A DNA stretch of 64,000 nt from IMG/VR virus record IMGVR_UViG_3300009873_000022, positions 607 through 64,606 of that record; one strand, written 5' to 3'. Source of the DNA: a virus. Position numbers and translations under genes: made by a program. Shown one piece after another: positions 6,248 through 64,000 of this stretch; position 1 is the stretch's first letter; every line of letters starts with the position of its first letter. Below the pieces are notes generated by a model. That model did not search any database, was not told the origin of the DNA, and worked only from the letters and a program-made list of their open reading frames with translations.

Positions 6248-7153
6248 TCATGCCGCCTTCCTTTCAATGAGTACCTGTACCTGCTTGATGGCAGCTTGGG
6301 CCATGCGTTCACTGAGTACATCAGCATTGATGACCACCAGAAGTTCTCCTCGCTCCTCGCATTCCTTGATGTATGGGCTAGTGACATGTGAGTTCGTGTA
6401 CCCCATATGCCCTTGACACACCCTTCCATCGTCATTGCACAGACGTGCCTTGAAGTTGTAGAAGCGATGCCAGCCCATGCAAGACTGCATAGCCAGTCTG
6501 TTCAGGTCAAGCGGCATGCTGCTGGACTTGGCAGTGAATGAGGTATGAACAGTGCTGGTAGTGGTGAAGACCTGATCGGCAGATGCCCCGACAGTTATCT
6601 CCACCGTGTAACCGGACTTCTGCAGCATGTCACACACTTTGTAGGCAGTAGCGGCACGCCAGATACTGGCCATTGCATCCACACTGCCAAGTCCACCGAT
6701 GTTGATGTAGACGTGTGCAGCCTTGCGCCTGACCTGATGCAGGTCACGACGAGTGTTGCTCCATGCCCTGTCAAGGTTGCCCTGATAGACAGCATGTATA
6801 TCAAGGTCACTGCCGTTGTCGGCCCGTACCCTTCTACGCTTGGTAGCTTGAGTGAGCGCTACCGGCAGCGTCTCGGGATTCAACGTGAGATGTGAGGCAG
6901 CGTACTTCACTGCACTCAACAGTTCCGGCCAGCCTTCCTTAACCTTCTGCTCGAACTCCTCGCCAGTGCGCACGGCAGGACCGTACCACTCACGACCACG
7001 AATTGAGGTCATTGGAATGGCAGTGCGCATCCGCGTTTGATTGATATCATTCTTCGGAGCATCCTTGAGAAGATCCTCGAATGAGGGATAGTGGATAACG
7101 TACTCCACTCGATTCGCGTAGGTACGCGACGGATACTTGCGTTCGATCTTCAT
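6248..7153 (-). CDS. hypothetical protein; possible partner of the adjacent AAA ATPase, with a position like CobT/VWA but no clear MIDAS motif
   Basis: 301-aa ORF translationally coupled to 7150..8391. Confidence 0.45.
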   Translation of the reverse strand: MKIERKYPSRTYANRVEYVIHYPSFEDLLKDAPKNDINQTRMRTAIPMTSIRGREWYGPAVRTGEEFEQKVKEGWPELLSAVKYAASHLTLNPETLPVALTQATKRRRVRADNGSDLDIHAVYQGNLDRAWSNTRRDLHQVRRKAAHVYINIGGLGSVDAMASIWRAATAYKVCDMLQKSGYTVEITVGASADQVFTTTSTVHTSFTAKSSSMPLDLNRLAMQSCMGWHRFYNFKARLCNDDGRVCQGHMGYTNSHVTSPYIKECEERGELLVVINADVLSERMAQAAIKQVQVLIERKAA

Positions 7154-8391: not shown

Positions 8392-8415
8392 GATAGTCTC
8401 CTGTGAGAGGTTGAA

Positions 8416-8618
8416 TCAGCAACGAATTGAATCAAGCGCGCCTGTCCGTACCTTGTGACAGTCGCCCATGTCTGAAAAGTGGAACTCTACTACCTGCTGA
8501 GCGAGCAGATCGTATGCCTTGAAGGTTTCGTCCTCAAGGTCAAACGAGAGAAAGACAAAACGTGTCATTCTGTAGCCGGGATGCTTGAATAGATCACCGA
8601 TGGTGAATTTCTTCATGA
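8416..8618 (-). CDS. small hypothetical protein (first gene of the leftward operon)
   Basis: The internal start MKKFTIGD is preceded by CACAGGAGATTATC-ATG. The track ORF extends to 8679 without an RBS. Confidence 0.4.
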
Positions 8619-8639
8619 TAATCTCCTGTGAGATGCAGT

Positions 8640-9426
8640 AGCGAAAGACACTCGACATTGAATGCCCTTCGCACTGCACCCTCTGTATATCGAGGGTGAG
8701 TGTGTCCAGGTTTCGGCCCGTCAGGGCGGAGTCTTGCTGGACGATGTAGGTACTCTGCTTGCTTGTGCTGAGGTGTATTCAGCCGTTGACACACTAGGTA
8801 GGCTATCACGAAGACATGGCCATCATAGGTAAGCTGTCACGAAGACATGGCTATCGGGCGTGGACGTTGCGCAAACTTTCTTTCCCGTTGTAGTGCATTA
8901 TTCTAAGACGCTGCACCGACGTATCATCTAGTTGCATAGACTAGTGAACTTGCATGCACTGACCTTTACTCGGGCCGTTCGAGGTGCGCTAACTTGGGTT
9001 GCATGGGATGCGGTGGAACCTTGAACCGCTTTTTCTAGCTACCGTTTTCCCGGCAGCTCCCATTCCCGCGTTACAGGGTGCCACCCTAGCTAGTGCGCTT
9101 TGTCATGCGCCTTTGCCCGCTGCTCTCACCCGGTAGTTGGCTTGCCTTCCTTGGCCTACGTGGTGGCTGGTACGTGCTACCAGCGGCCCTAGTATGGCCT
9201 ACCCGGCAAGCGGGGGCAATATATAAGGTATAAGGCGCGAGGCCCACAGCGAGCCTAAATGCTTTTGGAATTCAACAACTTAGCCGCGCCCTACCCCAAA
9301 ACCGGGTAAATGGGCCGCTACCGGGTGCCGGGTAGCCTGCAACGGGCCAGTTTTGCGCAAGAAATTGGTTACTTTTTAACCATCTAATCTTGGTTACTTT
9401 TTAACCAATCTTTGGTTACTTTTTGT
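8640..9426. promoter_or_regulatory. ORF-free region of about 790 bp, presumed to hold the promoter and regulatory DNA for the leftward early operon and the terminator for the upstream operon; a possible structured ncRNA
   Basis: No ORF of 60 aa or more is present on either strand in this region. It has balanced GC and several inverted repeats, for example GCTACCGG-GTG-CCGGGTAGC near 9312. Confidence 0.5.
8797..8855. repeat. two 28-bp direct repeats (GGTAGGCTATCACGAAGACATGGCCATC and GGTAAGCTGTCACGAAGACATGGCTATC)
   Basis: The repeats are visible in the sequence with period 31 bp and lie upstream of the leftward operon. Confidence 0.7.
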
Positions 9427-9430
9427 TCAA
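9365..9430. repeat. three tandem copies (period 22-25 bp) of TTGGTTACTTTTTAACCA, each a short palindrome
   Basis: The copies are visible in the sequence and sit immediately after the stop of the FkbM-like gene. The third copy is degenerate. Confidence 0.75.
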
Positions 9431-10026
9431 TCACTCACCGGCACATACAGAGCATGTGTCTTGTCGCTATCAACGAGCTCATATCCATGACGCTCGAACC
9501 ACGAATGGAGATCACTGAGTGTCATTGAGTACATCTTTCGAAGAACGGCCGATGATACATCAATCACTATGACGGGCTTGTACTCCTTTATCATCTTCCA
9601 CGCTCCCCTCAGCGTTAGAAGCTCAGTTCCGTCGCCATGAATATGAATTATGTCGCAATGTGCCAACCGAAGCTCATCGAGCTCGATGCCCTCTATATCG
9701 CCGTCATCGTCCAGTACCAGATGAGAGATGCCGGATTTCTTCTCTGTCTTCAGAGAGTACTTCCCAGCCATGTCCATCACTGCCCTGCGCCATAGACATA
9801 CTGTGGTCGCGTAGCTCTTAGGACTCTGCGTCAGCCACAGTGAATAGAGCTTGGTGAATGCTTGGCCATGCTCAAATGAATGAACCTCTCCGAATCTTGA
9901 CCAGAATTCCCTTGACCACTCACCGTCTCCGGCTCCTATGTCAATAGCGCAATCCCTACCCTTCGTTCGATTGAGCGCCTCCTGGAGAATCCTTATCTCG
10001 GACTTTTCCTTTGAAGGGGATGACAT
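9427..10026 (-). CDS. FkbM-family methyltransferase (likely a sugar or hydroxyl O-methyltransferase)
   Basis: The motifs DIGAGDGEWS and CDIIHIHGDGTELLTLRGAWKMI match the FkbM pattern. The start is uncertain because the track ORF 9427..10098 overlaps the primase by 140 nt. Confidence 0.55.
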   Translation of the reverse strand: MSSPSKEKSEIRILQEALNRTKGRDCAIDIGAGDGEWSREFWSRFGEVHSFEHGQAFTKLYSLWLTQSPKSYATTVCLWRRAVMDMAGKYSLKTEKKSGISHLVLDDDGDIEGIELDELRLAHCDIIHIHGDGTELLTLRGAWKMIKEYKPVIVIDVSSAVLRKMYSMTLSDLHSWFERHGYELVDSDKTHALYVPVSD

Positions 10027-12118
10027 TCTGTGGGAGTTCTTGCTTGAAGCGTTTGAGCTTATCAAACCTGCGGAAGTGATCGACCCATTCTGCGTCATTT
10101 TTGGTACTCCATTCGTTTGCGTTCAACACTGCATACAGGGTAAGCGTACTGACATTGAGTCCATTTCGTATCTTCAGCCTTCTGTTCGGTACTCCCAGTC
10201 GCTTGAACACCACTCCCAGCGCATTCGGTGCCAGACTGGTTCTGGGCAATCTATGCTCTTCGACATATCGCGCCATGATCTGAACGATGCTGTCCATCTC
10301 GTACAGTTGAAGGTCAGGCAGCACCCCAGCAACCATAGTGAATGCCTCTGGAGCCTGCTTGAGTTTCGCGGCAAGCTCATCCATCGGATTCCTGCTGATG
10401 GCGATCATCTCATTCTTTGCTCTCGTGACTGGAGCATGCCCGTTGGGATTGAATTCAGTGAGATCGACGTGTTTGAGATGATTCAGTATCTGCGCTGCTC
10501 CATTCTCTTGGTCCAGCCATTTGTTGTATGCCTTGAAGAACTTCGCGCTCAGTGGGGTATCTGGTGCATTCACACTGAACACGCGCCTGTCTTTCTCGCT
10601 GATTGGCAGAGCATCACTGTGATTAGACGTAATGTACAGATTGGCATAGTTGCGCACTGTTCTGCTTGGCTGGTACTTCTCGCTCAGGTTGAGATCTTCA
10701 TTGGTGATGAATGAATTGAGCCGTCCCATGATGGACGCGCGCAGACTCTTCGAATAATTGACGTAGATCTCATCGATGAACACGAACTGACGTTCTGCAA
10801 TCCATCCATTGAACGAGCTTTCAATATCAGCGCCGTCTATGCGCCTGTAATTGTGTGGCCCGTACATCTGCTTGACGGGCTTTTCCACCAATGAGTTCTT
10901 TCCGATGCCGTGTCCGTATGAGTAGATGAATACAGCTTGCGCCAGCTTGGTCCCTACATGCTGCAATGGATAGGCGAACCACTGCATGAGCCACTTCTTT
11001 TCTGCATCGCGCAGATTGGACGTCAGATGATCGAACAACTCAAGCCACAGTACAGGCTCACCTTCTGCGGGCAGCAATTCAGGAGCCTGCCACGTATTCA
11101 CCACCTCAATTCCCTTGCCCTTCGGCCTGAACCTAGACTTCTTGCCCGGCTCATACACGACACCGTCTACGTCAGTTTCTGGCAGTCTACTCCTCATCCA
11201 TATGTCAATGGCAGGGACCATCTTCTTTGGATCTTCAGGTGATGGAACTCGGTATCTAGGACCGTACTCATTCAACAACTGAGCTCGCTCTCTGAATTTC
11301 TTGGCGATGACCGAGAAGTATTGACCCTGCTCCTTGACGAACACGAGCTCTTCATTCAAGGCCGATAGTGCATCTGCTCTACTGTCACTTCGTCGTGGGA
11401 GCTTCTCGAATGCTGCTCTGGCCTCTTTCGCAGACGTGAAGGTCGCCAGGTAATCATCGAGCCCGACCTTGACCTCGCCCTCTGCGCTCTCCAGATACAC
11501 AAAGCTCACGCTCTTGGGAGCAAGCGTGGCCAGTTCTGCGGACAGTTGATTCATGGCCAGACGAACGTGCTCGTTGTAGCTCAAATCACTGTCATAGCAG
11601 ATGTCTATTGCAGTGTGCTTCAGGTCAAACAGATTGAATTCTTCAAGGAGGGTGATCCCTCTCTTCTTAGATTTGAAGTTGAACACTCCGGCCAGTGCCA
11701 CAGTGGGAATTCCAGAAAGACAAGCCTTGATGGCCTTCTTCTCACCTTCTGTGATGCACAGGTACTTGAGCTTGATCTTCCCCGTCTGCTTGTCTATCGG
11801 CCAGTCATACAGCGGCGAGAAGTACAGGTGTGGAGCAGTGTTGGCGCGCTGATTGTACTTGAACGTACTCTTCTTGATATCACCTACCTTCCATCGTCCC
11901 TTCAGTAGTCTCAGTCTTGCGAAGTTGATCGGCTTCTTGTTGTGATCGAAGAATGGAATCTTGTACGCGCACGCTGTTCCGGCCTTCTTGACACCAAGGA
12001 ACTCCGCGATCTCCACGGAATTCATTGTCTTCAACTTCAGCTTCTTGGCGTGCTTCCACGGTATTCCACTTCTACGCAGGTCTGCCTTTAGCAGAGCGAG
12101 CGGTGATGGCGTTTTCAT
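9956..12118 (-). CDS. DNA primase/helicase (N-terminal Toprim-like primase, C-terminal SF3/D5-P4-type helicase)
   Basis: The Toprim-like motif is LCITEGEKKA. The P-loop is YSYGHGIGKNS. The protein is 720 aa. Confidence 0.8.
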   Translation of the reverse strand: MKTPSPLALLKADLRRSGIPWKHAKKLKLKTMNSVEIAEFLGVKKAGTACAYKIPFFDHNKKPINFARLRLLKGRWKVGDIKKSTFKYNQRANTAPHLYFSPLYDWPIDKQTGKIKLKYLCITEGEKKAIKACLSGIPTVALAGVFNFKSKKRGITLLEEFNLFDLKHTAIDICYDSDLSYNEHVRLAMNQLSAELATLAPKSVSFVYLESAEGEVKVGLDDYLATFTSAKEARAAFEKLPRRSDSRADALSALNEELVFVKEQGQYFSVIAKKFRERAQLLNEYGPRYRVPSPEDPKKMVPAIDIWMRSRLPETDVDGVVYEPGKKSRFRPKGKGIEVVNTWQAPELLPAEGEPVLWLELFDHLTSNLRDAEKKWLMQWFAYPLQHVGTKLAQAVFIYSYGHGIGKNSLVEKPVKQMYGPHNYRRIDGADIESSFNGWIAERQFVFIDEIYVNYSKSLRASIMGRLNSFITNEDLNLSEKYQPSRTVRNYANLYITSNHSDALPISEKDRRVFSVNAPDTPLSAKFFKAYNKWLDQENGAAQILNHLKHVDLTEFNPNGHAPVTRAKNEMIAISRNPMDELAAKLKQAPEAFTMVAGVLPDLQLYEMDSIVQIMARYVEEHRLPRTSLAPNALGVVFKRLGVPNRRLKIRNGLNVSTLTLYAVLNANEWSTKNDAEWVDHFRRFDKLKRFKQELPQNVIPFKGKVRDKDSPGGAQSNEG

Positions 12119-12136: not shown

Positions 12137-12589
12137 TCATTGTGCCGCGTATTCTTTGTCGAAGTTGTCCAGCGCCTCTTCTATGGTGTAGCCGAATCCT
12201 GCGATGCCTTCCTGTAGATTCTCACCGCACACTGCGCACCACATATTCCCGTCTCTCTGTACCCGCAGATCATTGGGTCTGTTGGGTACAGGACGAGGCT
12301 GGTCTACCCCTTCCAGTCCCTTTGTAGTGTCACCTGCCCACTTGGCGAACGTGTCAATCTTGGTAGCGCGGCGCTCTGCTATGCTTCCCCAGTTCAAATC
12401 AAATGCCACAGTTACCACGTACATCGCCGCCAGAACGTCTGCCATTTCCTCCTCCATTCGCTTTGAAAGAGGCCCTCGCCCATCTGGGTGAGTATCGCCA
12501 TGATAGTACGCCAGTTTCTTTCCACAAACCTGCGTCAGTTCTCCGCACTCTTCAATGAGCTTCACAAGCCCCTTCGCTGTCAATGCCAT
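12137..12589 (-). CDS. mazG: MazG-like nucleoside triphosphate pyrophosphohydrolase
   Basis: The motif EECGELTQ...EEEMADVLAAMYVVTV is the MazG EExxE/D signature. The protein is 150 aa. Confidence 0.75.
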   Translation of the reverse strand: MALTAKGLVKLIEECGELTQVCGKKLAYYHGDTHPDGRGPLSKRMEEEMADVLAAMYVVTVAFDLNWGSIAERRATKIDTFAKWAGDTTKGLEGVDQPRPVPNRPNDLRVQRDGNMWCAVCGENLQEGIAGFGYTIEEALDNFDKEYAAQ

Positions 12590-45345: not shown

Positions 45346-45651
45346 TCAAGCCAGATGCACTTGACTAAGTTCCAAGCCATTCATGTCTGCGACGATTTGT
45401 CGATATCGAAGTACTTCGGCATCCATCGCACTTACCATAGCCTCCCAGTACTCGACCTCCGTCATGACTCCCTTCTTGATGAGAAGCTGTACCAGTCCTG
45501 AGTGCTGAACCATTGCAGAGTTCACTCCTACTCGAAGATGCTTTGGCTCTTGATCCTTGCTTCTAGGCATGGAGGCCACTCCAGATTGCATGGCGTGACA
45601 CAGTTCGTTGTACCGTTGCATCAGCTGCGATAGCTTCACTACGTCTTCCAT
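45346..45651 (-). CDS. hypothetical protein
   Basis: The start MEDVV overlaps the SPFH stop as ATGA. The track ORF extends to 45723. Confidence 0.4.
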   Translation of the reverse strand: MEDVVKLSQLMQRYNELCHAMQSGVASMPRSKDQEPKHLRVGVNSAMVQHSGLVQLLIKKGVMTEVEYWEAMVSAMDAEVLRYRQIVADMNGLELSQVHLA

Positions 45652-46610
45652 CACTTTACTCCTGTGCTGAAAAATGGGATGGGAAGGCTGGCGTTGTACT
45701 GCTGTGGCAGTTGACCGTTCCACCGCTCAGCCTTGGTCTGCTCAACCTGAATGCGCAGCACTTCGAGCACATCCTTGTTCTGCTGAAGCGCGGCGTTCTG
45801 GATCTTCATGGCATCTGCCTTTGCAGTGGCATTCTTCAAGGTGGCATATGCCTCGCCGTCAGCAGTGGCCCTTACTGCAGACGCCTCTGCTTCTGCAATG
45901 GCAACCTTCTGCTTCTGTTCAGCTTCGACGGTCTTCAGCTTGTTCTCAGCACCGAGGCGAAGCTGCTCTTGTGTCACCTTGTCATTGATGGCGTCCATGT
46001 ACGACTTGCTGAATGCAAAGTTGCGCATATCGATGTTGACTACCTGTGCGCCATACAGGGCCAGCTTCTGCCCTAGCGCAGCATAGATATCTGACGATAC
46101 CGCTGCTCGTTTCGCAATGAGATCAGGTGCAGTGTACTTCGCAGTCACGGCCTTGAAGATTTCCTGTGCGGCTGTTTGCACGTAGCTGGAAAGATCACCG
46201 TCGTGTGAGTACTTCTCATAGACCTCCGCGACCTTGTCTGGGCTGATGGAGTAACGAACTGTCAGACTGACTGTCACTGGCTGCGTGTCAGAGGTTGAGC
46301 CGTTTGCATTCTCAATATCAGCTTGCTCAGCACGAACATTGAACAGCGCAATCTTCTGCCACGGAGGAAGGATAGCCAGCCCTTCCTGTTCAATGCCAAC
46401 GATCTTTCCGAATTGAGTCACTACACCACGACTTCCCGTTGGAACAGAATAAAATGGCCACAGAATACTGATCGCGATGAGTATCGCTATGGTAATCAGT
46501 ACGTCCCTGATGATGGCCGTAAAGTTCACCTCTGTGACTACCCTTGCTGGCCCTCTTCCGAATGCGTCTTCGATTGTCTTTGTCTTGGTGTATCTGTCTT
46601 TGATGCTCAT
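45651..46610 (-). CDS. SPFH/band-7 (prohibitin/HflKC-like) membrane protein
   Basis: An N-terminal TM segment is followed by an SPFH core and a C-terminal A/E-rich coiled coil. Confidence 0.75.
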   Translation of the reverse strand: MSIKDRYTKTKTIEDAFGRGPARVVTEVNFTAIIRDVLITIAILIAISILWPFYSVPTGSRGVVTQFGKIVGIEQEGLAILPPWQKIALFNVRAEQADIENANGSTSDTQPVTVSLTVRYSISPDKVAEVYEKYSHDGDLSSYVQTAAQEIFKAVTAKYTAPDLIAKRAAVSSDIYAALGQKLALYGAQVVNIDMRNFAFSKSYMDAINDKVTQEQLRLGAENKLKTVEAEQKQKVAIAEAEASAVRATADGEAYATLKNATAKADAMKIQNAALQQNKDVLEVLRIQVEQTKAERWNGQLPQQYNASLPIPFFSTGVK

Positions 46611-46617
46611 GCTTCCC

Positions 46618-47259
46618 TCAGAATAGTTTGAACGTTATGAACCCGTTTTTCCAGAATGATGCCGATCCATCTTCTTGTACAGGCGTCTCCGGTACCTCGA
46701 AATCGAAATGATACTCTTTATCTAGTAACCTCCTTGCCTTGGTCAAGCCTCTGTATGCAGTGAGCATGGCCAGCCTCTTGTTATGTAGATCTCGTTTGGC
46801 AACATCATACATGGACAGCAGAGGATGATCAGCATTCTTTTTCTTAGCTGCCTTTTCCAACTTCTTCAGATGTTTTCTGGCTGCCGCATTCGTGTCTAGA
46901 TCGCCCTCAACCCTCTCGATATTCTGCTCTACAATGAGGATCACATGGTTGAGAAAGTCTGCATCCTCGTTCCCCAGAACTTGCCTCAACGCTTCGGTCA
47001 CTATCTGGCGAATGATCAAGTGCGCGTACTCTTCTCTAGATAGGCTTTTCTTTGTTTCTCCTTCTTTGTCATACCGATCCCTCTTTTCTGGGTCACTCAG
47101 TATTTCATAGGCGCGATTGATCTCTGCCATCTTTTCATTCGCGTCACTGCTCTTGTTTCTATCCGGATGATAGTGAGATGACTTTCTTCGGAAGGCTTTT
47201 CGTATCTCATCCTGTGTGGCATTGGGTCTGACGCCCAAGATTTCATACAGACTAGCCAT
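46618..47259 (-). CDS. DnaJ (J-domain) co-chaperone-like protein
   Basis: The J domain is [31 protein letters not shown], with the HPD motif. Confidence 0.75.
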
Positions 47260-47443: not shown

Positions 47444-47856
47444 GGACCCTCCTTCACCACGTGTGAGGCGAGAATGACACTGATCACATCGTGAGGGCTG
47501 ACCCCGGCCACGGTCGCTATCTCCTGCATCTTCTTGGTCAGTTGATCATTCAACCTGATTGGAACAGCAATAGAACTGATTTCAACATCAGACTTGTCTT
47601 CCGCTTCAATCCGCCTCTCAATCTCCCTGTTGAGGCGTCGTGTCTCTTCGCGCTTCTGCTCCTCTTCTTCGGTAGCCAGAGTAGCTTTGATTGCCTCTGC
47701 CAAAGTAGTGATGGCGACAAAGAGTTCTTCGCGTGGAAGCCTCTTCGTGACATTGGCCAGCCAGTCTCTCAATTCAATCATGTCCAAGGGCGTCCCAGGA
47801 CTCCATTGAAACGTGGTGCTCATATCTTGTTCCTCTCTTCGGCTCTTGTATTCCAC
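47440..47856 (-). CDS. hypothetical protein with a possible RHH-like C-terminus
   Basis: 138-aa ORF. Confidence 0.35.
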   Translation of the reverse strand: MEYKSRREEQDMSTTFQWSPGTPLDMIELRDWLANVTKRLPREELFVAITTLAEAIKATLATEEEEQKREETRRLNREIERRIEAEDKSDVEISSIAVPIRLNDQLTKKMQEIATVAGVSPHDVISVILASHVVKEGP

Positions 47857-48182
47857 ATCTTGACGGCTAGCTCTTTCGTGTCATGAAAGCCACAGTGCGC
47901 TCCGCATCCTTTTCCGTACTGCGCATCACAGATGATTGTGAATGCTTTACGGTGTAGTCTATCATTGCCATATAGTTCGTCGCTTGAGATAAGCACGAGT
48001 GTATCGTCTTTGCCACAGAACGGACAGGGCGGATAGGAATGTAGAGTCACTACCCTTTCAATCTCACCTCTTACCCTTTCTATTTCCTTGACCAACTTTG
48101 ACGGTGGACATACCAGCGCGATATCAGTCAGTTCGCGGCGAAGGCGGCTAAGGTGTGGCTCCGCTGATTTCAGATTAATCAT
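47820..48182 (-). CDS. Lar-family restriction-alleviation-like Zn-ribbon protein
   Basis: CPFCG and CGAHCG are present. The C-terminal KMWNTR resembles the Lar-family WNxR. Confidence 0.5.
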   Translation of the reverse strand: MINLKSAEPHLSRLRRELTDIALVCPPSKLVKEIERVRGEIERVVTLHSYPPCPFCGKDDTLVLISSDELYGNDRLHRKAFTIICDAQYGKGCGAHCGFHDTKELAVKMWNTRAEERNKI

Positions 48183-49449: not shown

Positions 49450-49760
49450 GCCTCGCCGCGCCTAGCACATAGCGCGGCAGGCTGGCAAGCAATTTAACAA
49501 TAATTCAACCCGGCCCCGGCTGGCCCTGCCTGCCCCGGCCCACATGCCCCGGCCCAAGCCCCGCGAGCTCTGGCGCGAGCCCCATGGGCCCCGGCTGGCC
49601 TATTACCTGCCCCGGCTGGCCCCGGTTTGCCAGCCCTGCCCCGGCTGGCCTGCCCCGGCTGGCCCTGCCCGGTTTGCGCAACCTGCCAGCCTGTAGCGGC
49701 CCGTGGTGGGCCGTGGGGCCTAATAACAGCGGGGGCACCAAGCCCTGTGAGCCCCAAGCA
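49450..49760. repeat. GC-rich intergenic repeat block with at least 5 copies of TGCCCCGGCTGGCC and G-tracts on the minus strand, preceded by the hairpin GCCGCGC...GCGCGGC
   Basis: The block is visible in the sequence, and its local GC is far above the roughly 50% of the rest of the window. The collagen-like ORFs called here are artefacts. Confidence 0.7.
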
Positions 49761-50085
49761 GCCCGCTACAATCCGGGCAGGCACTCGGGTCACGCGGCTT
49801 GTCAACGTTCATGGCGGCGGACTGCTCCATGTTTTGCCGGATGCGCTCCTGAGTTTCCCTTTCCTCAAGGATCTCAATGTACTTCTGGAGATAGTGCTGT
49901 GCCTTCTTCAGATCCTCGATTCCATTTTTCTTTTTGTGACGGAACACATACTTGGTGATGTTCCCTTGGAAGTAGTCGAGATTGAAGATATTCACTACAT
50001 CCCAGTGTTCAATGCCTCCGGTCTGATAGTGACTACCACCGACTTGAGTTTCGTTTGCCTTACTTGTAGACTGGCCAACCATGAT
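49720..50085 (-). CDS. DUF3310-like protein
   Basis: The motif GGSHYQTGGIEHWDV is present. The internal start MVGQ avoids overlap with the HD gene. Confidence 0.4.
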   Translation of the reverse strand: MMVGQSTSKANETQVGGSHYQTGGIEHWDVVNIFNLDYFQGNITKYVFRHKKKNGIEDLKKAQHYLQKYIEILEERETQERIRQNMEQSAAMNVDKPRDPSACPDCSGLLGAHRAWCPRCY

Positions 50086-50629
50086 AGGTCTCCTGTACCA
50101 AAGCGAGTGAGTAACGGGCCTCGAAGGCCATGCTGAATACCTCATAGAGCCACTTGGTCTGCTCATTGATATCCATGAGTCCACGTTCGCGTATGGCAGT
50201 GAGTCCATTCATGGCAACCGTGGCCATGATTCTGTTTCCACTGTCTACCTCCTCCATTGAGAAGATCACCAGCTCCATGATGTCACAGAATTTAAGTACG
50301 CGCTTCTCAATGCCACTCAGCTCCGTGTGCATACTGAATTCATTCTTGATCCGCTCCTCGACTACGCGAAGCGCTGACTCGAGTTCTGGGTGACGCCACT
50401 TGACCGGAGATGGAACATCACCAGTGATCCCCTCTGGTGCGTCATGGTACAGTGCTGCTCGCCACAGTGCTTTCGATGCGGTCGGTAGCACAATATCAAT
50501 CAATGCCAGTATCCCGAACGTGTGCTCACCAACTGTCTGTTGATGCACAGGAGGAAGAGTGTGAAGCCGCTTTACTCTGGCAACCACTCGCATCAACTTC
50601 AGCCTGTCGAATTCTTGTTTACCGTACAT
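50060..50629 (-). CDS. HD-domain phosphohydrolase (YfbR-like 5'-deoxynucleotidase family)
   Basis: H...HD...D is present as HTFGILALID...YHDAPEGITGD. Confidence 0.7.
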   Translation of the reverse strand: MYGKQEFDRLKLMRVVARVKRLHTLPPVHQQTVGEHTFGILALIDIVLPTASKALWRAALYHDAPEGITGDVPSPVKWRHPELESALRVVEERIKNEFSMHTELSGIEKRVLKFCDIMELVIFSMEEVDSGNRIMATVAMNGLTAIRERGLMDINEQTKWLYEVFSMAFEARYSLALVQETYHGWPVYK

Positions 50630-50630
50630 G

Positions 50631-51665
50631 TCAACCTCCCTTCACAGACATTCTGCGCTGAAGCCATTCAATGCAGGCGATCTTCCAGTCTTCCGCCTTG
50701 CAGTGTGCAGCCAGATGGTTGATTGCCTCTTGGGTTTGTCCGGCCTTGTGCATGTCCCACGCCAGTTGAATGGGGAAGAAGACATCCAGGAAGTACGAAT
50801 CATAGTGCCCACACTGTTCCCTGTGCGCGCCTTCCATCACTTCTAGCAGTTGGAACAACCACTCTTCCCATCTTGTGCCATTGATCAATGGGTACGGCTT
50901 GATGTTCTGTGTGGCGTACCTATCCACGCTCGCCGGGCTGGACCGCACCTTCAACCATGCGTCCTGTTGAGTGTAGACATGAAAGCTGTCGCTCACTTGG
51001 ATGTATGACCCTACCTCTACGCGCAAGGCGCGAGCCACGAATTCTTGAATGGTGCTGAACTGTACTGCGTTCGCTCCGTATGCTCCCCAGATGGCGTCGT
51101 TGCTGCGGCAGCTTACCGTGATGTTCAACCTTCCATCGCGCAACTTGAAGAAGATCAGATCATTGCACGGGATATCCTTCGAATTAGCCCCGAGGTCTGC
51201 AATTGGATCCCAGATGGCCACCACTGCGCGACGAGTATCTGGATCGTCACCAAGAAGTCTGATGACGCGACGGAGCTGATCAATTCCATGGAATGCCCTG
51301 ATTCGAAAGCCGTAAGCTCCGTGGAATGTCTCTCCATTGTCACTGTACTCAGACATCTTCTTGTTATAGCGAGTCAGTGTCGCTACGTCATTGCGCCCAT
51401 CGATGATCCACAGAGCCTCCATGAAATGGAAAAACGGATTCGCGTCTCTTTCTGGCGAAAAGAGCACACGCTCATCCGGTCGCAGGTACTCTGTAATCCA
51501 CAGACCCTTGTACTCCGCTGTCTCCATTCCACGGGGAGATATCACCCTCCAATTCTCCGAGTCTTGAATGGCCTCGACCGCACTGATCCTGAGATTGTTC
51601 AGTGCCTGATTCACATTTCTTACCACGACTGATCTAATCACTTCTTTCTCCTTTTGATTTCCCAC
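50631..51665 (-). CDS. thymidylate synthase-family enzyme (ThyA or dUMP hydroxymethylase; Cys nucleophile retained with His replaced by Asn)
   Basis: The protein aligns by eye to ThyA. LWIIDGRND aligns to LWFLQGDTN. AYGFRIRAF aligns to VYGKQWRAW. DPDTRRAVVAIWDP aligns to DPDSRRIIVSAWN. IPCNDLIFF aligns to APCHAFFQF. RSNDAIWGAYGAN aligns to RSCDVFLGLPFN, and the uracil-specific Asn is kept. Confidence 0.8.
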   Translation of the reverse strand: MGNQKEKEVIRSVVVRNVNQALNNLRISAVEAIQDSENWRVISPRGMETAEYKGLWITEYLRPDERVLFSPERDANPFFHFMEALWIIDGRNDVATLTRYNKKMSEYSDNGETFHGAYGFRIRAFHGIDQLRRVIRLLGDDPDTRRAVVAIWDPIADLGANSKDIPCNDLIFFKLRDGRLNITVSCRSNDAIWGAYGANAVQFSTIQEFVARALRVEVGSYIQVSDSFHVYTQQDAWLKVRSSPASVDRYATQNIKPYPLINGTRWEEWLFQLLEVMEGAHREQCGHYDSYFLDVFFPIQLAWDMHKAGQTQEAINHLAAHCKAEDWKIACIEWLQRRMSVKGG

Positions 51666-52648
51666 GGTCTAAGTACAACTTCTGACAGCGTCCTTATCTT
51701 GGTAGCGCCATCAACGGCCGTTCTATCACTGCCGGTAGGCATTCTCAATTCTTTCTTGCCCTTCTTGTCGGGTAGCAGCCCAACACGGTATGACTTGGCA
51801 TCACACACGTTGCACGGCTTCAACGAAGCTCTGTCACCTTGCATCAAGAATCTTCTTGCCGCCATGAACTCATTACCGTTCCACACGGCATCGAGGCCGT
51901 CCTTCACGATGTTTCCACACTGATATACGCCGCGCCAGTCATTACAGCAGATGGCCACTTCTCCATCCCATCGAATGGATAACTCACGGAATGGCTTCGC
52001 GCATCTGGCCTTCAACGGTTCTTTCAGTCCGGGGGAGCCAGAGCCGCAATGATTGTTCAGTGTCGAGTGTGTCCCGGCCTGCGCTACACTGATATCCTGT
52101 ACGCGAATGAATACTCGCGCCTTGTGCCCGTATCTGTTGTGTGGTGACCAGTCCTTTTCTTGTGGATAGGCATGTACTTCGAACACGTTTGAATCGAACG
52201 ATGAGAATTGTTCTGTGTTCGAAAACAGAATCGGGTCAATCTTGTCCTTGATCTTCACATACTCATAGGCATCGAATGCAAATACATTCAAGCCTGCATC
52301 AAACAGCTCTCTCAATGACTCGAACACTCCGGGTGGACGCAATAGCCCACCACCATTGGATGTCATCATCAACTGTACATTCGGCAGATACCTGCGGAAT
52401 GCCTTGACGATCTTGATGTAGTTAGGGTTCATCGTCGGTTCGCCATGCATTGCGAACTCAATGCGAGGATTCCACCCTGCCTCTGCAATCTGACCAGCGA
52501 TACTCTTGGCAGTAGCCACGGTCATGAACTTGAAATTCTTCTCCTTCTGTGTGCGGATACCCTGTAGCCCACAGAAGTCGCAATAGAGGTTGCAGCCCTC
52601 ACTGAGTTCCACCTGTACGGCGAACGGAGCTTCTTGTCTGTACTTCAT
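51638..52648 (-). CDS. radical SAM enzyme with a SPASM-like C-terminal domain
   Basis: The CxxxCxxC motif is EGCNLYCDFCG. The C-terminus has CCNDWRGVYQCGN...CNVCD. Confidence 0.8.
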   Translation of the reverse strand: MKYRQEAPFAVQVELSEGCNLYCDFCGLQGIRTQKEKNFKFMTVATAKSIAGQIAEAGWNPRIEFAMHGEPTMNPNYIKIVKAFRRYLPNVQLMMTSNGGGLLRPPGVFESLRELFDAGLNVFAFDAYEYVKIKDKIDPILFSNTEQFSSFDSNVFEVHAYPQEKDWSPHNRYGHKARVFIRVQDISVAQAGTHSTLNNHCGSGSPGLKEPLKARCAKPFRELSIRWDGEVAICCNDWRGVYQCGNIVKDGLDAVWNGNEFMAARRFLMQGDRASLKPCNVCDAKSYRVGLLPDKKGKKELRMPTGSDRTAVDGATKIRTLSEVVLRPWEIKRRKK

Positions 52649-53673
52649 TTCAACATCTCCTCTATGTACATCTGACCGACCAGCTTGGGATCGTGCTCTC
52701 TCAGCAGTCTGTACCCATGATGTACGATCTCTCCAATCGAAGACCTGCGCAGTGGCAGTCCATTCAGTATGGCAGACACATTGAACGCCAGTTCACTTGG
52801 CCCATTGACTGGGATTACGTGCCTCCACTTTCGTAGCTCACCATTGTATCGGAACCAGTCGTAGTGCATGATGTTGACACATCCAGCATCCATGGCCTCC
52901 ATCTGCGCGTACTGTGTGCCACCTCCATCATCTGGAAACCATGTCATGTCCACGTTCACCGTAGCTGCCGCAGCCAATCTCACTGGAGCATCAAAAGTCA
53001 TGGGATACTGAAAGGTCTTACCACTCTGCTGAAAGACATCACCGTATTTCGCTTCGAGTTGCTTGGTGTACATGCGAAATTCAGCGCCCAGAAGCTTCAC
53101 CCTGTACTGTGGCTCGAGCATCCTGTTTGCCTCCAGCACGATCCTCGGGCGTTTGACACTGGCAATTCGCGCAATGGATATCGCTTCATTTCTCCTGCGA
53201 ATCTCAGGAAACGGACCAGCACGCATGTATGGATGTGGAATCCACACTGCGTCCTTGTAGAAGTGCCGTATCGTTGGACGGATACAGATGGGCCGCGTTG
53301 CCAGTTTGGTGACCTTTCCCAAATGATCGTAGATCGTGAATTCATTTGGGTCATGAATGACGGTGCGCATACCATCGGCCATCAAGCGCATGATCATATC
53401 TGGAGGAGTGAGGTACTTGGAATTCGCCGGTGATCCCATCACGGTAGGCATGTCTTTGACTATGGTCCTAGCCTCGCTGAATGTGATGTTCCTGTATTTC
53501 ACTCCTTCATACTGTGCAAAGTTTCGTAGCCTCTCTGGCGGTTCGCCACGAGGTTTGACACGAAGTATCACGGGTTCGTGTCCAGCGGCTTCGAACGCTT
53601 TGAACAAGTGCGCAGTGAACGTGGATGTTCCGCCTCCAAGGTACGGGCGAAAGAAGAATATTCCTACTTTCAT
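52645..53673 (-). CDS. GT-B fold glycosyltransferase, possibly DNA-modifying (the N-terminus recalls T4 alpha-glucosyltransferase)
   Basis: MKVGIFFFRPYLGGGTSTF...AAGHEPVILRV is compared with the T4 AGT N-terminus MRICIFMARGLEGCGVTKF...GHEVTLV as recalled from memory. Confidence 0.45.
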   Translation of the reverse strand: MKVGIFFFRPYLGGGTSTFTAHLFKAFEAAGHEPVILRVKPRGEPPERLRNFAQYEGVKYRNITFSEARTIVKDMPTVMGSPANSKYLTPPDMIMRLMADGMRTVIHDPNEFTIYDHLGKVTKLATRPICIRPTIRHFYKDAVWIPHPYMRAGPFPEIRRRNEAISIARIASVKRPRIVLEANRMLEPQYRVKLLGAEFRMYTKQLEAKYGDVFQQSGKTFQYPMTFDAPVRLAAAATVNVDMTWFPDDGGGTQYAQMEAMDAGCVNIMHYDWFRYNGELRKWRHVIPVNGPSELAFNVSAILNGLPLRRSSIGEIVHHGYRLLREHDPKLVGQMYIEEMLK

Positions 53674-53792
53674 CTATGGGCTCCCAGCGATATCGCCTTA
53701 CAATGAACACACTGGTAGACACCACCCTTGAGATGATTGAACTTGAACTCCCATTTGCAGTTAAGGAATAGACACCTGATTGAGTACCTCAT
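53670..53792 (-). CDS. possible 40-aa Zn-ribbon microprotein, translationally coupled (ATGA overlap)
   Basis: The sequence MRYSIRCLFLNCKWEFKFNHLKGGVYQCVHCKAISLGAHR has CxxxxC...CxxC. The longer track ORF 53670..53918 overlaps the upstream gene. Confidence 0.25.
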   Translation of the reverse strand: MRYSIRCLFLNCKWEFKFNHLKGGVYQCVHCKAISLGAHR

Positions 53793-54664
53793 ATGATCCC
53801 TTCCCCTTTCAACTTGCTCACGTTCAATTGCAACTCGAAATTGAAATGCGGCAACTCGTACGGAAAAGCCTTGCGCCAATTGATACGAACATCGGTGCGT
53901 TCTTTCATTCCTTCCCACGATGTAGCACCGATCACTTTCTTTCGAACAACGGTTACGTACTTGGGATGCGCATCACGCAGCATGTGTGCCGCCTTGGCCT
54001 GTGTCTCTTCGTTACGGTAGATACTGCACCCTCCCTTCATATTAGACCCGGTCTGGTTCCAGCAGTAGTCGTAGACACAGGCATTTGGAATTCCACGCTC
54101 AAGAAGCGACAATGTCACGTGAAAGTCCTCCATGACCCTGTACTCATCGAACCTTAGCCCGGTCTTGGCAAACTCTTTGATGTTGAACCCATGAACATTG
54201 TTGATGCGCGTACACCATCTGTAAGGGCTTAGATAGTGTGATGAATCTACACGGCTAGACAACCCTGTCTGCACGATTCCCATGCTGAGTGGCCTGACCA
54301 TCATGTAGAGCATGTGCCTCATGTCAGGTGCAGTGGCCTTCACTAGTTTGATGGCTCTTGGTCTTTCTCTACGGTAGAAGTAGAGGTCGTCATCGAACAT
54401 CAGAGCATACTTGGTAGGGCAATGATCAAGTATCCACTGTCTGGTCTTGCCAATCCCCTTCTTTGATATACCCAAGACCTTGAATAGTGAATTTGGGTGA
54501 TGCTGTCTGTATTCAGATACCTCATCAATTGGCACTACGACCCTGACCTTGCCAGCCTCTGAAAGTTCTACTGGCATGGCATAGAACGTTCGCACATCTG
54601 CGGCCCTACCCCTACTGGGAATGTAGATGGTAGTGTCTTCCATCAACTCTTCGTACGAACTCAT
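53789..54664 (-). CDS. putative GT-A fold glycosyltransferase (DxD-like MFDDDLYFY)
   Basis: The N-terminus IYIPSRGR is Rossmann-like and an acidic DDD motif is present. The protein is 291 aa. Confidence 0.4.
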   Translation of the reverse strand: MSSYEELMEDTTIYIPSRGRAADVRTFYAMPVELSEAGKVRVVVPIDEVSEYRQHHPNSLFKVLGISKKGIGKTRQWILDHCPTKYALMFDDDLYFYRRERPRAIKLVKATAPDMRHMLYMMVRPLSMGIVQTGLSSRVDSSHYLSPYRWCTRINNVHGFNIKEFAKTGLRFDEYRVMEDFHVTLSLLERGIPNACVYDYCWNQTGSNMKGGCSIYRNEETQAKAAHMLRDAHPKYVTVVRKKVIGATSWEGMKERTDVRINWRKAFPYELPHFNFELQLNVSKLKGEGII

Positions 54665-54672
54665 GAGTGCTC

Positions 54673-55662
54673 CTATAATGGTAACTCGTGCTGTAGTGTC
54701 CCCACTCCTGTCGGTGTGAAAAGACTGCGCGGCCTTCCCTCACCATTCTTGACGCGCATGTACTTGTCGAACTCGCAGAGTGAATGTTCAATCTCTCGCA
54801 TCTCGAATGGAAGTTCCGTTCCACGTGCATGTGCTTTGGAGTATACGAACATGTTGAACCAACTCCCCTGTATCAGAAGATCTCGCATGACAGCATTGTA
54901 ATCAATCTTCCTGTACTTCTTGGTCTTTGGACGTTCAGCGCTGCCAGTCAGCAATCGATGAATGCCGCGCTTCGCACCGGGTCCGGGGTTGGCCCATGAC
55001 TCACTGTCAATGTTCTTGGCAAGGACCCTAGTGTACCTTAGATCACACGCTATCTCATATGCAACGAATGGCCCAATGGTATAGATCTCGCTCAGTGCCT
55101 CGACTGCCTTTTCCATTGAGCGATGATTCGCTATCTGCGCCGCCAGTTCATCGCGCTTTTCAAAGAGTTCCTGTAGTGCCTCACATATGACAACGATCTT
55201 TGACTCCTTTCGCCCGCCAGATGTAACGATGTACGCGCCAGTGAATATCTGCTTTCCCTCTGCTTTTCGTTTCTCCAGAATCTTGATGGCACGATCTTTG
55301 ACCCACAGGTTCTTCGACCACTTTCCCTTGGTGAGTTCGCTACGTGGTAGCCCAAAGAACAGAGCATCGTAGGTCTCTGGCCAATTGAACAGTCGAAACA
55401 TGGCACAGTGGAAGATGATATCACCATCGGTCATTTCCTTACCGCGACCGAGAAGACGTACGAACCGGTCTACCCAAGCGAGTGTCACACGGTCAAGTTG
55501 CCTGAATACATTGGTGAACTTGTATTTGGACAGTATCTTGTCCTTAGTGTATGGTGGGGACCTCTTCTCTACGAATCTGCGTAGATAGATTGAATGACGC
55601 TCATTGATGAAATACCAGAATGTCTTCAATTGAGTTTTCCGGTACGCAATCTTATCGGCCAT
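54673..55662 (-). CDS. hypothetical protein in the DNA-modification-like cluster
   Basis: 329-aa ORF with no recognisable motif by eye. Confidence 0.45.
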   Translation of the reverse strand: MADKIAYRKTQLKTFWYFINERHSIYLRRFVEKRSPPYTKDKILSKYKFTNVFRQLDRVTLAWVDRFVRLLGRGKEMTDGDIIFHCAMFRLFNWPETYDALFFGLPRSELTKGKWSKNLWVKDRAIKILEKRKAEGKQIFTGAYIVTSGGRKESKIVVICEALQELFEKRDELAAQIANHRSMEKAVEALSEIYTIGPFVAYEIACDLRYTRVLAKNIDSESWANPGPGAKRGIHRLLTGSAERPKTKKYRKIDYNAVMRDLLIQGSWFNMFVYSKAHARGTELPFEMREIEHSLCEFDKYMRVKNGEGRPRSLFTPTGVGTLQHELPL

Positions 55663-55719: not shown

Positions 55720-56721
55720 TTAGGCGGCGACCTTGACGTAGCCGTTAGCCACGAGCCAGCTCACGTATCCCTTCATCTTCTTCTCAGGGATGTCATGCTG
55801 CTTCTTGGCCAGACGAACAGCCTTGCCGTAGCTGGTCTTGGAGCCAATGACAGACTGTGCCTGCTCGCGCACTCCACCTTTGAATGCCTTGACCGTAGAA
55901 AGCATGGTTTCTTCAGTCAGCTTGGTGCGCTTGCTGCGCTCCTTCTTCTCCTTCTTTTCGGTAGCAGGGGCATCATCAGAACTCCGCTTCTTCTTTTTCT
56001 TTGCAGGAGCCTCCTCGCTGACCTTCTCCTTTTTCTTCTTGGAAACCTTTTCTTCTGACGGCTTGCTCTTCTCAGACTTGCTCATCTTCGTACTCCTATC
56101 TCTTGGTGCGACCGGCCAGATCTTCAACGTTTCGTCCCGGTCTTTAAGTTTGAAACGAACGTCGTTGTCATCGGAAACAACTCCGAGGACGCGATGCATC
56201 ATGTACTCTACGGTGTGAAATGCCTTGGTGTATGTTTGTGTCTTTACCTTTTTGCCAAGCCCTCCTGCAATAAGTCGGTTGAGATCGTCCCATGAAAACT
56301 GTGCCAGTGTTGTCTGTATCTCATACACGAAATTCGAATCATTGTACGCATCCTTTTCCGTGCGCATGTACACGGGTATGGATGGCGTCCATCTCTTATC
56401 GTTGTTCTTGTCCTTTTCGTAATCAGCAATCTTTTCATTGATGATCTTGACGTAGCGGGCCAAGAACTTCTTTCCATTGATGGCGCTGCGCGGTATGGTT
56501 TCCCTGAGTTCACGCCTGAATGTCATTGCTGCAGAGTGTGGATCCTCCTTGGTATTCTTGTAGTTTTCCTTTCGATTCTTCTTTTCTTCCTCGCGCTTCT
56601 TTGCGTTCTTTGCGTACCGCTTGAGATCCTTGTCAGTGGACGGTACGAATGCGGGAGTGGTACTTGCCTCTGATGTCTTGGACTTTTTCTTTGAGAGTGA
56701 GTCTTTCTTTTCCTTTACCAT
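55720..56721 (-). CDS. lysine-rich histone H1-like DNA-binding protein
   Basis: Poly-K/E tracts such as KKKEKVSEEAPAKKKKKRS are present. The C-terminus has a winged-helix-like globular segment of about 70 aa. Confidence 0.55.
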   Translation of the reverse strand: MVKEKKDSLSKKKSKTSEASTTPAFVPSTDKDLKRYAKNAKKREEEKKNRKENYKNTKEDPHSAAMTFRRELRETIPRSAINGKKFLARYVKIINEKIADYEKDKNNDKRWTPSIPVYMRTEKDAYNDSNFVYEIQTTLAQFSWDDLNRLIAGGLGKKVKTQTYTKAFHTVEYMMHRVLGVVSDDNDVRFKLKDRDETLKIWPVAPRDRSTKMSKSEKSKPSEEKVSKKKKEKVSEEAPAKKKKKRSSDDAPATEKKEKKERSKRTKLTEETMLSTVKAFKGGVREQAQSVIGSKTSYGKAVRLAKKQHDIPEKKMKGYVSWLVANGYVKVAA

Positions 56722-63508: not shown

Positions 63509-64000
63509 TTACTTCTTGCCCTTCTTGGCAAACCGCGACTTCGCCGGGGCCTTCTTGGCTGGCTTCTTTGCCGGGGCCTTCTTGGCTGGCTTCTTTGCCG
63601 GGGCTTTCTTGGCTGCACCCTTCTTGCCCTTCTTCACGGGCTTCTCATCCTCATCGTCCTCATCCTCGTCGTCCTCATCCTCATCCTCATCATCCTCGTC
63701 GTCCTCATCCTCATCGTCCTCATCGTCCTCATCGTCCTCATCGTCCTCATCGTCCTCGTCCTCGTCCTCGTCCTCATCGTCCTCATCGTCCTCGTCCTCG
63801 TCCTCGTCCTCATCCTTCTTGCTCTTCTTGCCCTTCTTCACGGGCTTCTCATCCTCATCGTCCTCGTCCTCGTCGTCCTCGTCCTCATCCTCATCCTCAT
63901 CCTCATCCTCGTCTTCGTCTTCGTCTTCGTCTTCGTCTTCGTCTTCGTCTTCGTCTTCGTCTTCGTCTTCGTCTTCGTCTTCGTCTTCGTCTTCGTCTTC
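63509..64000 (-). CDS. poly-acidic (Glu/Asp repeat) protein with a C-terminal H1/AlgP-like AKKPAKK tail; 5'-partial, open through the window end
   Basis: Read on the minus strand from the window end, the sequence is (ED)n...EKPVKKGKKSKK-(D/E)n-EKPVKKGKKGAAKKAPAKKPAKKAPAKKPAKKAPAKSRFAKKGKK*. The track start at 63841 is a GTG inside a longer open frame. Confidence 0.55.
   Translation of the reverse strand, partial: EDEDEDEDEDEDEDEDEDEDEDEDEDEDEDEDEDEDEDEDEDDEDEDDEDEKPVKKGKKSKKDEDEDEDEDDEDDEDEDEDEDDEDDEDDEDDEDDEDEDDEDDEDEDEDDEDEDDEDEKPVKKGKKGAAKKAPAKKPAKKAPAKKPAKKAPAKSRFAKKGKK
63906..64000. repeat. perfect hexanucleotide tandem repeat (GTCTTC)n of about 15 units, running to the window edge, encoding (Asp-Glu)n on the minus strand
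   Basis: The repeat is visible in the sequence. Confidence 0.9.

Follow-up and report, generated by a model that had tools for sequence, protein, structure and literature searches.

A BtrN-like radical SAM enzyme and a clade 1 aGPT-Pplase in a phage operon predicted to replace thymine with glycosylated 5-hydroxymethyluracil

The M6/YuA/ViI-type system of thymidine hypermodification reportedly comprises, in the work of Lee et al. of 2018 and 2021, a dUMP hydroxymethylase, 5-HMUDK, a clade 2 aGPT-Pplase/AADT and tailoring enzymes, and the Pplase clades themselves are said to have been defined by Iyer et al. in 2013. One M6 protein, gp53, is a radical SAM enzyme (rSAM) in thymidine hypermodification and another, gp55, is dispensable in vitro (PMC8989533). 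On hmC, the AGT and TAGT of T6 jointly build a disaccharide (PMC13390438). Glycosylated 5-hydroxymethylpyrimidines also occur in the phage TET/JBP (5mYOX)+TAGT/GT and kinetoplastid base J pathways, for which no mention of a radical SAM enzyme was found in the literature searched.

Here we analysed a window of 64.0 kb, taken from a 64.6-kb contig of an uncultured phage without a close cultured relative (best match of its PolA, 37% identical; no match of the operon region to GenBank phages by megablast). The original prediction of a leftward operon was borne out by an ORF check, in which all seven ORFs were found at 49720-55662 on the minus strand, running in one direction and near-contiguous. 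Spacing between the genes is a gap or overlap of at most 8 nt, with the exception of a 115-nt gap at 53674-53788, and promoter or terminator signals inside the operon did not rise above shuffled background. A GC-rich tract at 49500-49750 had no excess of RNA structure (z −0.21) and no Rfam match. The genes of the operon, followed by two weakly assigned genes elsewhere in the window, are:

54673..55662, minus strand: aGPT-Pplase clade 1 (HMUDK_hel; PF18723), hereafter Pplase1
53789..54664, minus strand: TAGT, GT-A-like (PF20691 1.2e-17, phrog_842 1.4e-45)
52645..53673, minus strand: GT-B fold glycosyltransferase, GT4-like (model and Foldseek)
51638..52648, minus strand: BtrN-like radical SAM enzyme with a Twitch-like (truncated SPASM) auxiliary-cluster domain (Pfam Radical_SAM and SPASM)
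50631..51665, minus strand: thymidylate-synthase-fold enzyme (TS homologue), predicted dUMP hydroxymethylase (Thymidylat_synt 5e-21, phrog_5131 1e-104)
50060..50629, minus strand: HD-domain YfbR-like 5'-deoxynucleotidase (PF12917 1.5e-13)
49720..50082, minus strand: DUF3310/SaV-like protein (PF11753 2e-12)
12137..12589, minus strand: MazG-like NTP pyrophosphohydrolase, weak assignment (phrog_4856 1e-8)
9427-10098: FkbM-like gene, weak assignment (phrog 3e-13, Pfam below cut-off)

The operon resembles the M6-type system in the clade of its TS homologue and in carrying an HD nucleotidase, a DUF3310 protein and a clade 1 Pplase, in the order of M6 gp55...gp58-gp59-gp61; both have a radical SAM enzyme, and post-replicative modification of hmU, as in M6, is predicted for the window. 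It differs in having no 5-hmdU DNA kinase, clade 2 Pplase or PLP enzyme, in having two glycosyltransferases where M6 has amino-acid transfer machinery, and in its rSAM, which is unrelated to gp53.

An independent gene call places the likely true start of the TS homologue so as to give 336 aa (50631-51641). The PCN motif, which stands in place of the P-C-H of ThyA, and the uracil-specifying Asn originally read in this protein are present as C167-N168 and N199, both kept in 23 homologues, and the catalytic Cys, Arg, His and Tyr of ThyA are conserved. The Asn lies at +9 from RSxD, as in the homologues from hmU phages, whereas that of ThyA lies at +8, and the position of ThyA Trp80 is deleted. Identity is 44% to M6 gp58, 34% to the protein of SPO1-like phi18, 33% to the ViI-like protein and 22% to E. 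coli ThyA; the closest relatives are those of known hmU phages (M6, SPO1-like, ViI-like), with which the C-N signature is held in common. All seven matching NCBIfam ThyA equivalog models scored below cut-off, the best being TIGR03283 (100 bits; cut-off 174.55). Among PDB entries the best match is the CMP hydroxymethylase MilA (1e-29; ThyA 5e-12), but MilA and T4-like dCMP hydroxymethylase have Asp at the specifying position where the window protein and its 23 homologues have Asn, and the predicted base is therefore uracil. Sequence alone cannot rigorously separate ThyA from dUMP hydroxymethylase; we predict the latter activity.

The GT-A-like protein, noted at the outset for its DxD motif, is a TAGT by both PF20691 (65 bits; cut-off 27.5) and phrog_842, with a conserved D91-D92-D93. 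All Pfam matches of the GT-B protein are sub-threshold, and its fold is supported by the model (pLDDT 94.9) and by Foldseek, in which numerous GT4 enzymes of the PDB and T4 alpha-glucosyltransferase matched it at a probability of 1.00. GT4 enzymes and the T4 structures 1xv5, 1y8z and 1ya6 did so with E ~1e-10 and TM 0.67-0.73, and T4 AGT-DNA complexes were among the top matches, so the likeness to T4 alpha-glucosyltransferase that had been suspected holds at the level of the two-Rossmann GT-B fold. As in T-even phages, T6 above all, genes for an AGT-like GT-B and a TAGT accompany one for a TS-fold enzyme, here a putative hydroxymethylase, that would act before replication; unlike there, the kinship to AGT is one of fold and family only (11-15% identity), the predicted base is uracil, and the rSAM and Pplase1 are extra. 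The GT-B protein has 81 metagenomic homologues. GT-B adjoins TS or TET/JBP in 79 loci, a context that makes action on 5-hydroxymethylpyrimidine in DNA its candidate function. A neighbouring family (c21) was also considered as a glycosyltransferase, which was not demonstrated (hhalign probability <1%, Pfam 0.025).

The strongest marker in the operon had been overlooked: the 329-aa protein first listed as an unknown is identifiable as PF18723 (3e-61, above the gathering score). Pplase1 has an HhH DNA-glycosylase-like fold, the nearest solved fold being that of 5-PmdU glycinyltransferase, and an invariant E292-H293-S294-L295-C296. It retains E-x-x-x-C and GPF motifs, and with them the catalytic Cys and putative metal-ligand Glu of clade 2; an hhalign comparison with a single clade 2 sequence is weak (E 0.14) and was used for motif correspondence only. 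The known chemistry of Pplases requires a phosphorylated substrate. A tblastn search with M6 gp54, run on the window and on 35 + 79 related loci, gave no match to 5-HMUDK, and M6 gp51 likewise gave none to a clade 2 Pplase in the window or related loci, clade 1 alone being present. A Walker A scan of the called genes in the window returned a sole motif, in an AAA_5 ATPase (7150-8391), and no other P-loop kinase candidate was seen there. The literature searched defines no function for clade 1 aGPT-Pplases.

Across these approximately 110 metagenomic phage loci, Pplase1, GT-B and TS recur together as a core. Of 42 TS-type loci 41 have Pplase1, against none of 14 TET/JBP-type loci, and in 31 of 46 loci it directly adjoins GT-B. 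In 14 loci GT-B lies next to TET/JBP without Pplase1, which indicates that GT-B can act as a terminal glycosyltransferase. The TS homologue is tightly linked to PF18723 and TAGT in dozens of phages, and sister loci (L029-L034) have the same rSAM and glycosyltransferase families beside TET/JBP, once also with ParB. A sugar-nucleotide enzyme, namely a cytidylyltransferase that includes a PMI cupin domain, is found in some related loci; the window holds no other sugar-nucleotide genes.

The original description of the rSAM as SPASM-type is right as to its Pfam matches (Radical_SAM 1e-9, SPASM 4e-12) but not as to its cysteines, since the full seven-Cys SPASM motif, for two auxiliary clusters, is absent and the C-terminal domain is Twitch-like with five conserved Cys (C216, C234, C235, C279, C282). 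The CX3CX2C motif (C19, C23, C26) is invariant in 33 sequences. The best PDB match is BtrN (1.2e-9), a 2-deoxy-scyllo-inosamine dehydrogenase and Twitch rSAM, in an alignment that spans both domains including Twitch. BtrN likewise combines CX3CX2C with a C-terminal four-Cys auxiliary-cluster domain, although the relationship is distant (E 1e-9) and the gene context wholly different. The suggestion that a radical SAM enzyme is in itself new to such systems has to be narrowed, as M6 gp53 is already known; what stands is that the window enzyme belongs to a separate, BtrN-like family. A glycosyltransferase adjoins the rSAM in 25 of 36 loci, the rSAM is once fused to TAGT (L027), and it occurs with TET/JBP T-dioxygenases and TAGT in loci that have neither TS nor Pplase1; it follows that the rSAM is partnered with the step of glycosylation and not with Pplase1. 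Because 19 loci with TS, Pplase1 and GT-B have no detected rSAM homologue, the core pathway does not require the enzyme, which is an optional add-on beside a glycosyltransferase. The family counts 1373 protein clusters in metagenomes, but in a set of 185,579 species genomes just 2 MAG contigs carry it; it is phage-restricted.

The HD 5'-deoxynucleotidase-like and DUF3310 proteins were both correctly named at the start. The former is 29% identical to M6 gp59, with which it is syntenic, and the latter 47% identical to M6 gp61; its gene call gives 120 aa (49720-50082), in an ORF that stays open to 50208. It matches several PHROGs labelled 'nucleotide kinase' (for example phrog_236, 7e-26) and is possibly such a kinase, a role suggested by those labels and by T7 gp1.7. 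The MazG and FkbM genes placed in the other arm fared less well, being weakly supported themselves and weakly linked to the pathway. The MazG-like protein (Pfam MazG 0.015, below cut-off) is only a possible accessory. Since BLAST finds no similarity between the FkbM-like gene and the FkbM genes beside rSAM in other loci, the former was dropped and is not counted in the system.

Most likely, then, the operon replaces thymine with 5-hydroxymethyluracil and afterwards adds sugars. Both homology and the comparison of loci back the core of the original prediction, that hmU is made at the nucleotide level, T nucleotides are removed by a nucleotidase and an NTPase, and a sugar is added after replication. 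From gene identities, folds, motifs and co-occurrence we infer all substrates and the order of steps in the scheme that follows, a two-stage hypermodification of thymidine, with hmU made before replication, glycosylated on DNA and then tailored through a radical reaction, which we regard as probable. In the first stage the TS homologue would convert dUMP to 5-hm-dUMP, which the DUF3310 protein may phosphorylate; the pool of thymidine nucleotides would be drained by the YfbR-like HD nucleotidase, perhaps with help from the distant MazG-like protein; and the family A polymerase of the phage would insert hmU instead of T. In the second stage the GT-B, with its T4 AGT-like fold, and the GT-A TAGT would glycosylate the 5-hydroxymethyl group, a step drawn in parallel to the disaccharide synthesis of T6. 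A 5-hydroxymethylpyrimidine in DNA would be glycosylated here as in the TET/JBP and base J pathways, but with hmU supplied from the nucleotide pool rather than by oxidation of T in DNA. The BtrN-like enzyme would then tailor the sugar, most likely by oxidising one of its carbinol groups to a ketone or by a radical rearrangement of a related kind. Pplase1 would flip out the 5-substituted uracil for attack of Cys296 on C6, like clade 2 enzymes, and would do so without the usual DNA kinase. More tentatively, at somewhat under an even chance, we propose that the rSAM acts on the sugar once it is joined to hmU in duplex DNA, or on the linkage between the two, and that Pplase1 performs Cys-C6 chemistry on non-phosphorylated, glycosylated hmU, which together would yield a chemical class unseen in any DNA.

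The rSAM might instead work on a free nucleotide-sugar, and not on DNA, to supply the glycosyltransferases with an unusual donor. BtrN, like several further Twitch rSAM enzymes, uses small, carbohydrate-like substrates, and the cytidylyltransferase with its PMI cupin domain in some related loci points the same way; the TAGT-rSAM fusion and the restriction to phages, however, are compatible with both readings, and the lack of other sugar-nucleotide genes in the window speaks against a free sugar, a reading that we judge unlikely. It is also conceivable, if a degree less credible, that GT-B and Pplase1 form an activation/transfer pair equivalent to 5-HMUDK and clade 2 Pplase. GT-B would add a sugar or sugar-phosphate leaving group to the hydroxymethyl, Pplase1 would displace it via an exocyclic methylene, bringing in a different nucleophile, and tailoring of the product would fall to the rSAM and TAGT; the final base would therefore not be simply a glycoside. 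The adjacency of the two genes, the retained clade 2 Cys and Glu and the finding of HMUDK and Pplase2 in none of the approximately 110 loci are in keeping with such a pair, as is locus L059, which combines Pplase1 and GT-B with an M6 gp53-like rSAM and PLP enzymes and in 15 kb of which no kinase or Pplase2 was detected. Yet L059 is a single locus, seen over 15 of the 44.9 kb of its contig, and the IMG/VR kinase scan, which detects only relatives of at least 70% identity, says nothing on that contig; a glycoside is moreover a poor leaving group, and GT-B does without Pplase1 next to TET/JBP in the 14 loci above.

Two further readings concern the TS homologue. That it is a true ThyA, with the glycosyltransferases and rSAM modifying something other than DNA, for instance a phage protein or glycans of the host envelope, would agree with the conserved catalytic residues and the Thymidylat_synt match. 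We consider this very improbable given the scores below every ThyA equivalog cut-off, the identity of 22% to ThyA versus 44% to the M6 homologue, and linkage to PF18723, TAGT and, in sister loci, TET/JBP, all of them DNA-base modification families. Scarcely any weight falls on a cytosine pathway, in which a dCMP hydroxymethylase would lead to glycosyl-hmC as in T-even phages: MilA is the best solved-structure match and TAGT and AGT-like enzymes are known from hmC systems, but the specifying residue is Asn rather than Asp and the nearest relatives come from hmU phages.

On the preferred reading of glycosylated hmU, the cluster predicts a widespread pathway, the rSAM family alone exceeding 1300 protein clusters. 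With Iyer et al. 2013 left aside, this rSAM family and the orphan base-flipping enzyme lie outside any described DNA-modification pathway. The operon offers a genomic way into the clade 1 aGPT-Pplase, which here lacks the kinase and the clade 2 enzyme that usually accompany it, and all parts of the operon are small single genes, open to synthesis and to testing on 5-hmdU DNA. Phage DNA hypermodifications determine cutting by restriction enzymes and CRISPR nucleases and are a source of DNA-labelling enzymes. The radical SAM family is new and apparently dedicated to DNA-linked sugars; if it does act on DNA, it would follow M6 gp53 as, to our knowledge, the second such family with a demonstrated part in making a DNA modification.

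All seven of the minus-strand ORFs described in the original prediction were found, and they form a single tight co-directional block in which neighbouring genes overlap or lie no more than 8 nt apart, except at a single 115-nt gap:

55662-54673, minus: Pplase1 (aGPT-Pplase clade 1, PF18723)
54664-53789, minus: TAGT, a GT-A-like TET-associated glycosyltransferase
53673-52645, minus: GT-B glycosyltransferase
52648-51638, minus: radical SAM protein (rSAM)
51665-50631, minus: thymidylate synthase (TS) homologue
50629-50060, minus: HD protein
50208 or 50082 (start) to 49720 (end), minus: DUF3310 protein

The window is nearly all of a 64,606-bp contig carrying the identical GT-B protein, and a second, independent gene call on the identical contig gave the same genes (TS, 336 aa; DUF3310, 120 aa). 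No promoter or terminator match in the operon rose above shuffled background. Near-identical DNA was not found among GenBank phages, and among isolates none has a family A polymerase more than 37% identical to that of this uncultured phage. Directly upstream of the cluster lies a 333-aa Lys-rich protein (55720-56721, minus) without a Pfam, PHROG or NCBIfam match, which was undetected in most related loci.

The TS homologue matches Thymidylat_synt (5e-21) and phrog_5131 (1e-104), but no NCBIfam ThyA equivalog model scores it above the curated cut-off. Among solved structures it is nearest to the CMP hydroxymethylase MilA (1e-29 versus 5e-12 for E. coli ThyA). Its top matches among isolated phages are M6 gp58 (43% identical, with 98% of the length aligned) and proteins of SPO1-like phi18 and ViI-like phages, all from phages whose DNA contains hmU (5-hydroxymethyluracil) or hmU-derived bases (PMC8989533). 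In a six-way alignment, identities to the window protein were 44% for M6, 34% for phi18, 33% for Maynard, 25% for a T4-like dCMP hydroxymethylase and 22% for E. coli ThyA. The residue following the catalytic Cys is Asn in all four hmU-phage-type proteins, His in ThyA and Thr in dCMP hydroxymethylase. The pyrimidine-specifying residue is Asn in the window protein and Asp in MilA and dCMP hydroxymethylase; this Asn is one residue farther from RSxD than in ThyA, an insertion common to the hmU-phage proteins. C167, N168 and N199 are kept in 23 homologues. Since Asn at the specifying position confers uracil specificity, as established by mutagenesis (ThyA N177D; T4 gp42 D179N), we read the protein, by clade assignment, as a predicted dUMP hydroxymethylase. 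The PCN motif and Asn noted originally are both present; of the two identities then offered, ThyA is disfavoured by the NCBIfam cut-offs.

The GT-A-like gene encodes a TAGT (1.2e-17; phrog_842, 1.4e-45) that keeps the DDD motif. All Pfam matches to GT-B were sub-threshold; its structural model (pLDDT 94.9) matched GT4-type enzymes and T4 alpha-glucosyltransferase (E ~1e-10, TM 0.67-0.73), the latter including its complexes with DNA bearing an HMU base, in line, at fold level, with the resemblance to the T4 enzyme proposed earlier. The HD protein is YfbR-like (1.5e-13) and the DUF3310 protein belongs to the SaV-like family, with M6 counterparts gp59 and gp61, respectively; many DUF3310 families bear the PHROG label "nucleotide kinase".

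The rSAM contains CX3CX2C. Pfam calls its C-terminal domain SPASM, as proposed, although the conserved Cys of that domain number just five. Its sole clear solved relative is BtrN (1.2e-9, both domains aligned), a Twitch-type dehydrogenase of 2-deoxy-scyllo-inosamine; comparison with the M6 radical SAM gp53 gave no similarity. The family comprises 1373 clusters in metagenomes, and just two matches among 185,579 species genomes, both on MAG contigs.

IMG/VR scans anchored on rSAM and GT-B yielded 35 and 79 loci, respectively, and homologues of M6 5-hmdU DNA kinase gp54 and clade 2 Pplase gp51 were absent from all of them. Pplase1, GT-B and TS recur as the minimal module, and PolA and HD often come next. 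In the GT-B set, Pplase1 occurs in 41 of 42 TS-containing loci versus none of 14 containing TET/JBP dioxygenases, and it directly adjoins GT-B in 31/46 cases. rSAM is optional (23 of the 42 TS loci), with a glycosyltransferase as its neighbour in 25/36 cases; at L027 (3324-5063), as Pfam confirms, TAGT and a BtrN-like rSAM are fused into one protein of 579 aa. The neighbourhood otherwise varies, with genes for an FkbM methyltransferase, a cytidylyltransferase that carries a PMI cupin domain, a dCTP deaminase and a sulfotransferase-like protein among those seen. In high-GC loci L029-L034 the rSAM family adjoins TET/JBP dioxygenases and TAGT-like genes, and once ParB, in agreement with recently described phage T-dioxygenases (PMC13229309). 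In that one case, L034 (8001-11415), rSAM is grouped with a TAGT-like glycosyltransferase, a TET/JBP dioxygenase and a protein with a ParB N-terminal domain, an arrangement consistent with the ParB-dependent class of T-dioxygenases plus an rSAM.

From these folds, motifs and linkages we infer the substrates and products of a pathway in which hmU would be made as 5-hm-dUMP and later incorporated into DNA, while the HD enzyme, and perhaps a tentatively assigned MazG-like protein (12137-12589), would deplete thymidine nucleotides. GT-B and TAGT would then glycosylate hmU on DNA; in T6, AGT and TAGT build a disaccharide on hmC (PMC13390438). Because rSAM accompanies glycosyltransferases whatever the hmU source, and in one locus forms a single protein with TAGT, it most likely acts on the sugar, whether on DNA or as donor. 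The reaction we favour, by analogy with BtrN, oxidizes a sugar carbinol.

Pplase1 goes with the TS route, not with glycosylation as such, and still has the catalytic machinery seen in clade 2 transferases. Together with GT-B it may substitute for clade 2 Pplase and kinase, as suggested by the gene content of L059 (IMGVR_UViG_3300033148_005555), where the order is Pplase1, GT-B, an M6 gp53-like rSAM (split by an intein with Hint/Intein_splicing matches, 8058-10631), two PLP enzymes, TS and HD, and where neither kinase nor clade 2 Pplase was detected within 15 kb. Alternatively, and speculatively, Pplase1 might reduce residual hmU to T, an idea drawn from the borohydride result obtained with gp51 (PMC8989533).

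Five perfect repeats of the 11-mer CCAGCCGGGGC lie within 150 bp just downstream of DUF3310 (49513-49662, minus), inside a GC island of 74-82% (~49500-49800); the window holds no further exact copy, the chance expectation being 0.6 with one mismatch allowed. The repeats look like an iteron or operator array. Neither excess RNA structure nor an Rfam match was found in this region, where a gene caller predicts a 77-aa Gly/Pro-rich ORF. An SPFH/Band 7 gene and a DnaJ-domain gene adjoin one another where the leftward arm ends (45651-47259, minus). In the other early arm, a DUF7192 protein (301 aa) is paired with a MoxR-like AAA_5 ATPase (413 aa; both within 6248-8391, minus). Apart from this ATPase, no called gene of the window has a Walker A motif. 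A 110-aa ORF (63509-63841, minus) with ~60 consecutive Asp/Glu and then a basic Lys/Ala/Pro-rich tail may encode a DNA mimic or histone-like protein.

Full-text literature searches, whose coverage stopped short of Iyer et al. 2013, found no paper on this gene combination; in the main survey of phage DNA glycosyltransferases, enzymes associated with thymidylate synthase are noted and radical SAM is nowhere mentioned. The system behaves like a hybrid of M6/ViI thymidine hypermodification and T-even or TET-phage glycosylation. It differs from the former in lacking the defining kinase and clade 2 Pplase, and from the latter in its predicted modified base and in the addition of rSAM and Pplase1. 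The window also encodes a homologue of Lar, which is a restriction-alleviation protein (47820-48182, minus; PF14354, 1e-6), which would give the phage a second anti-restriction function beside DNA modification.
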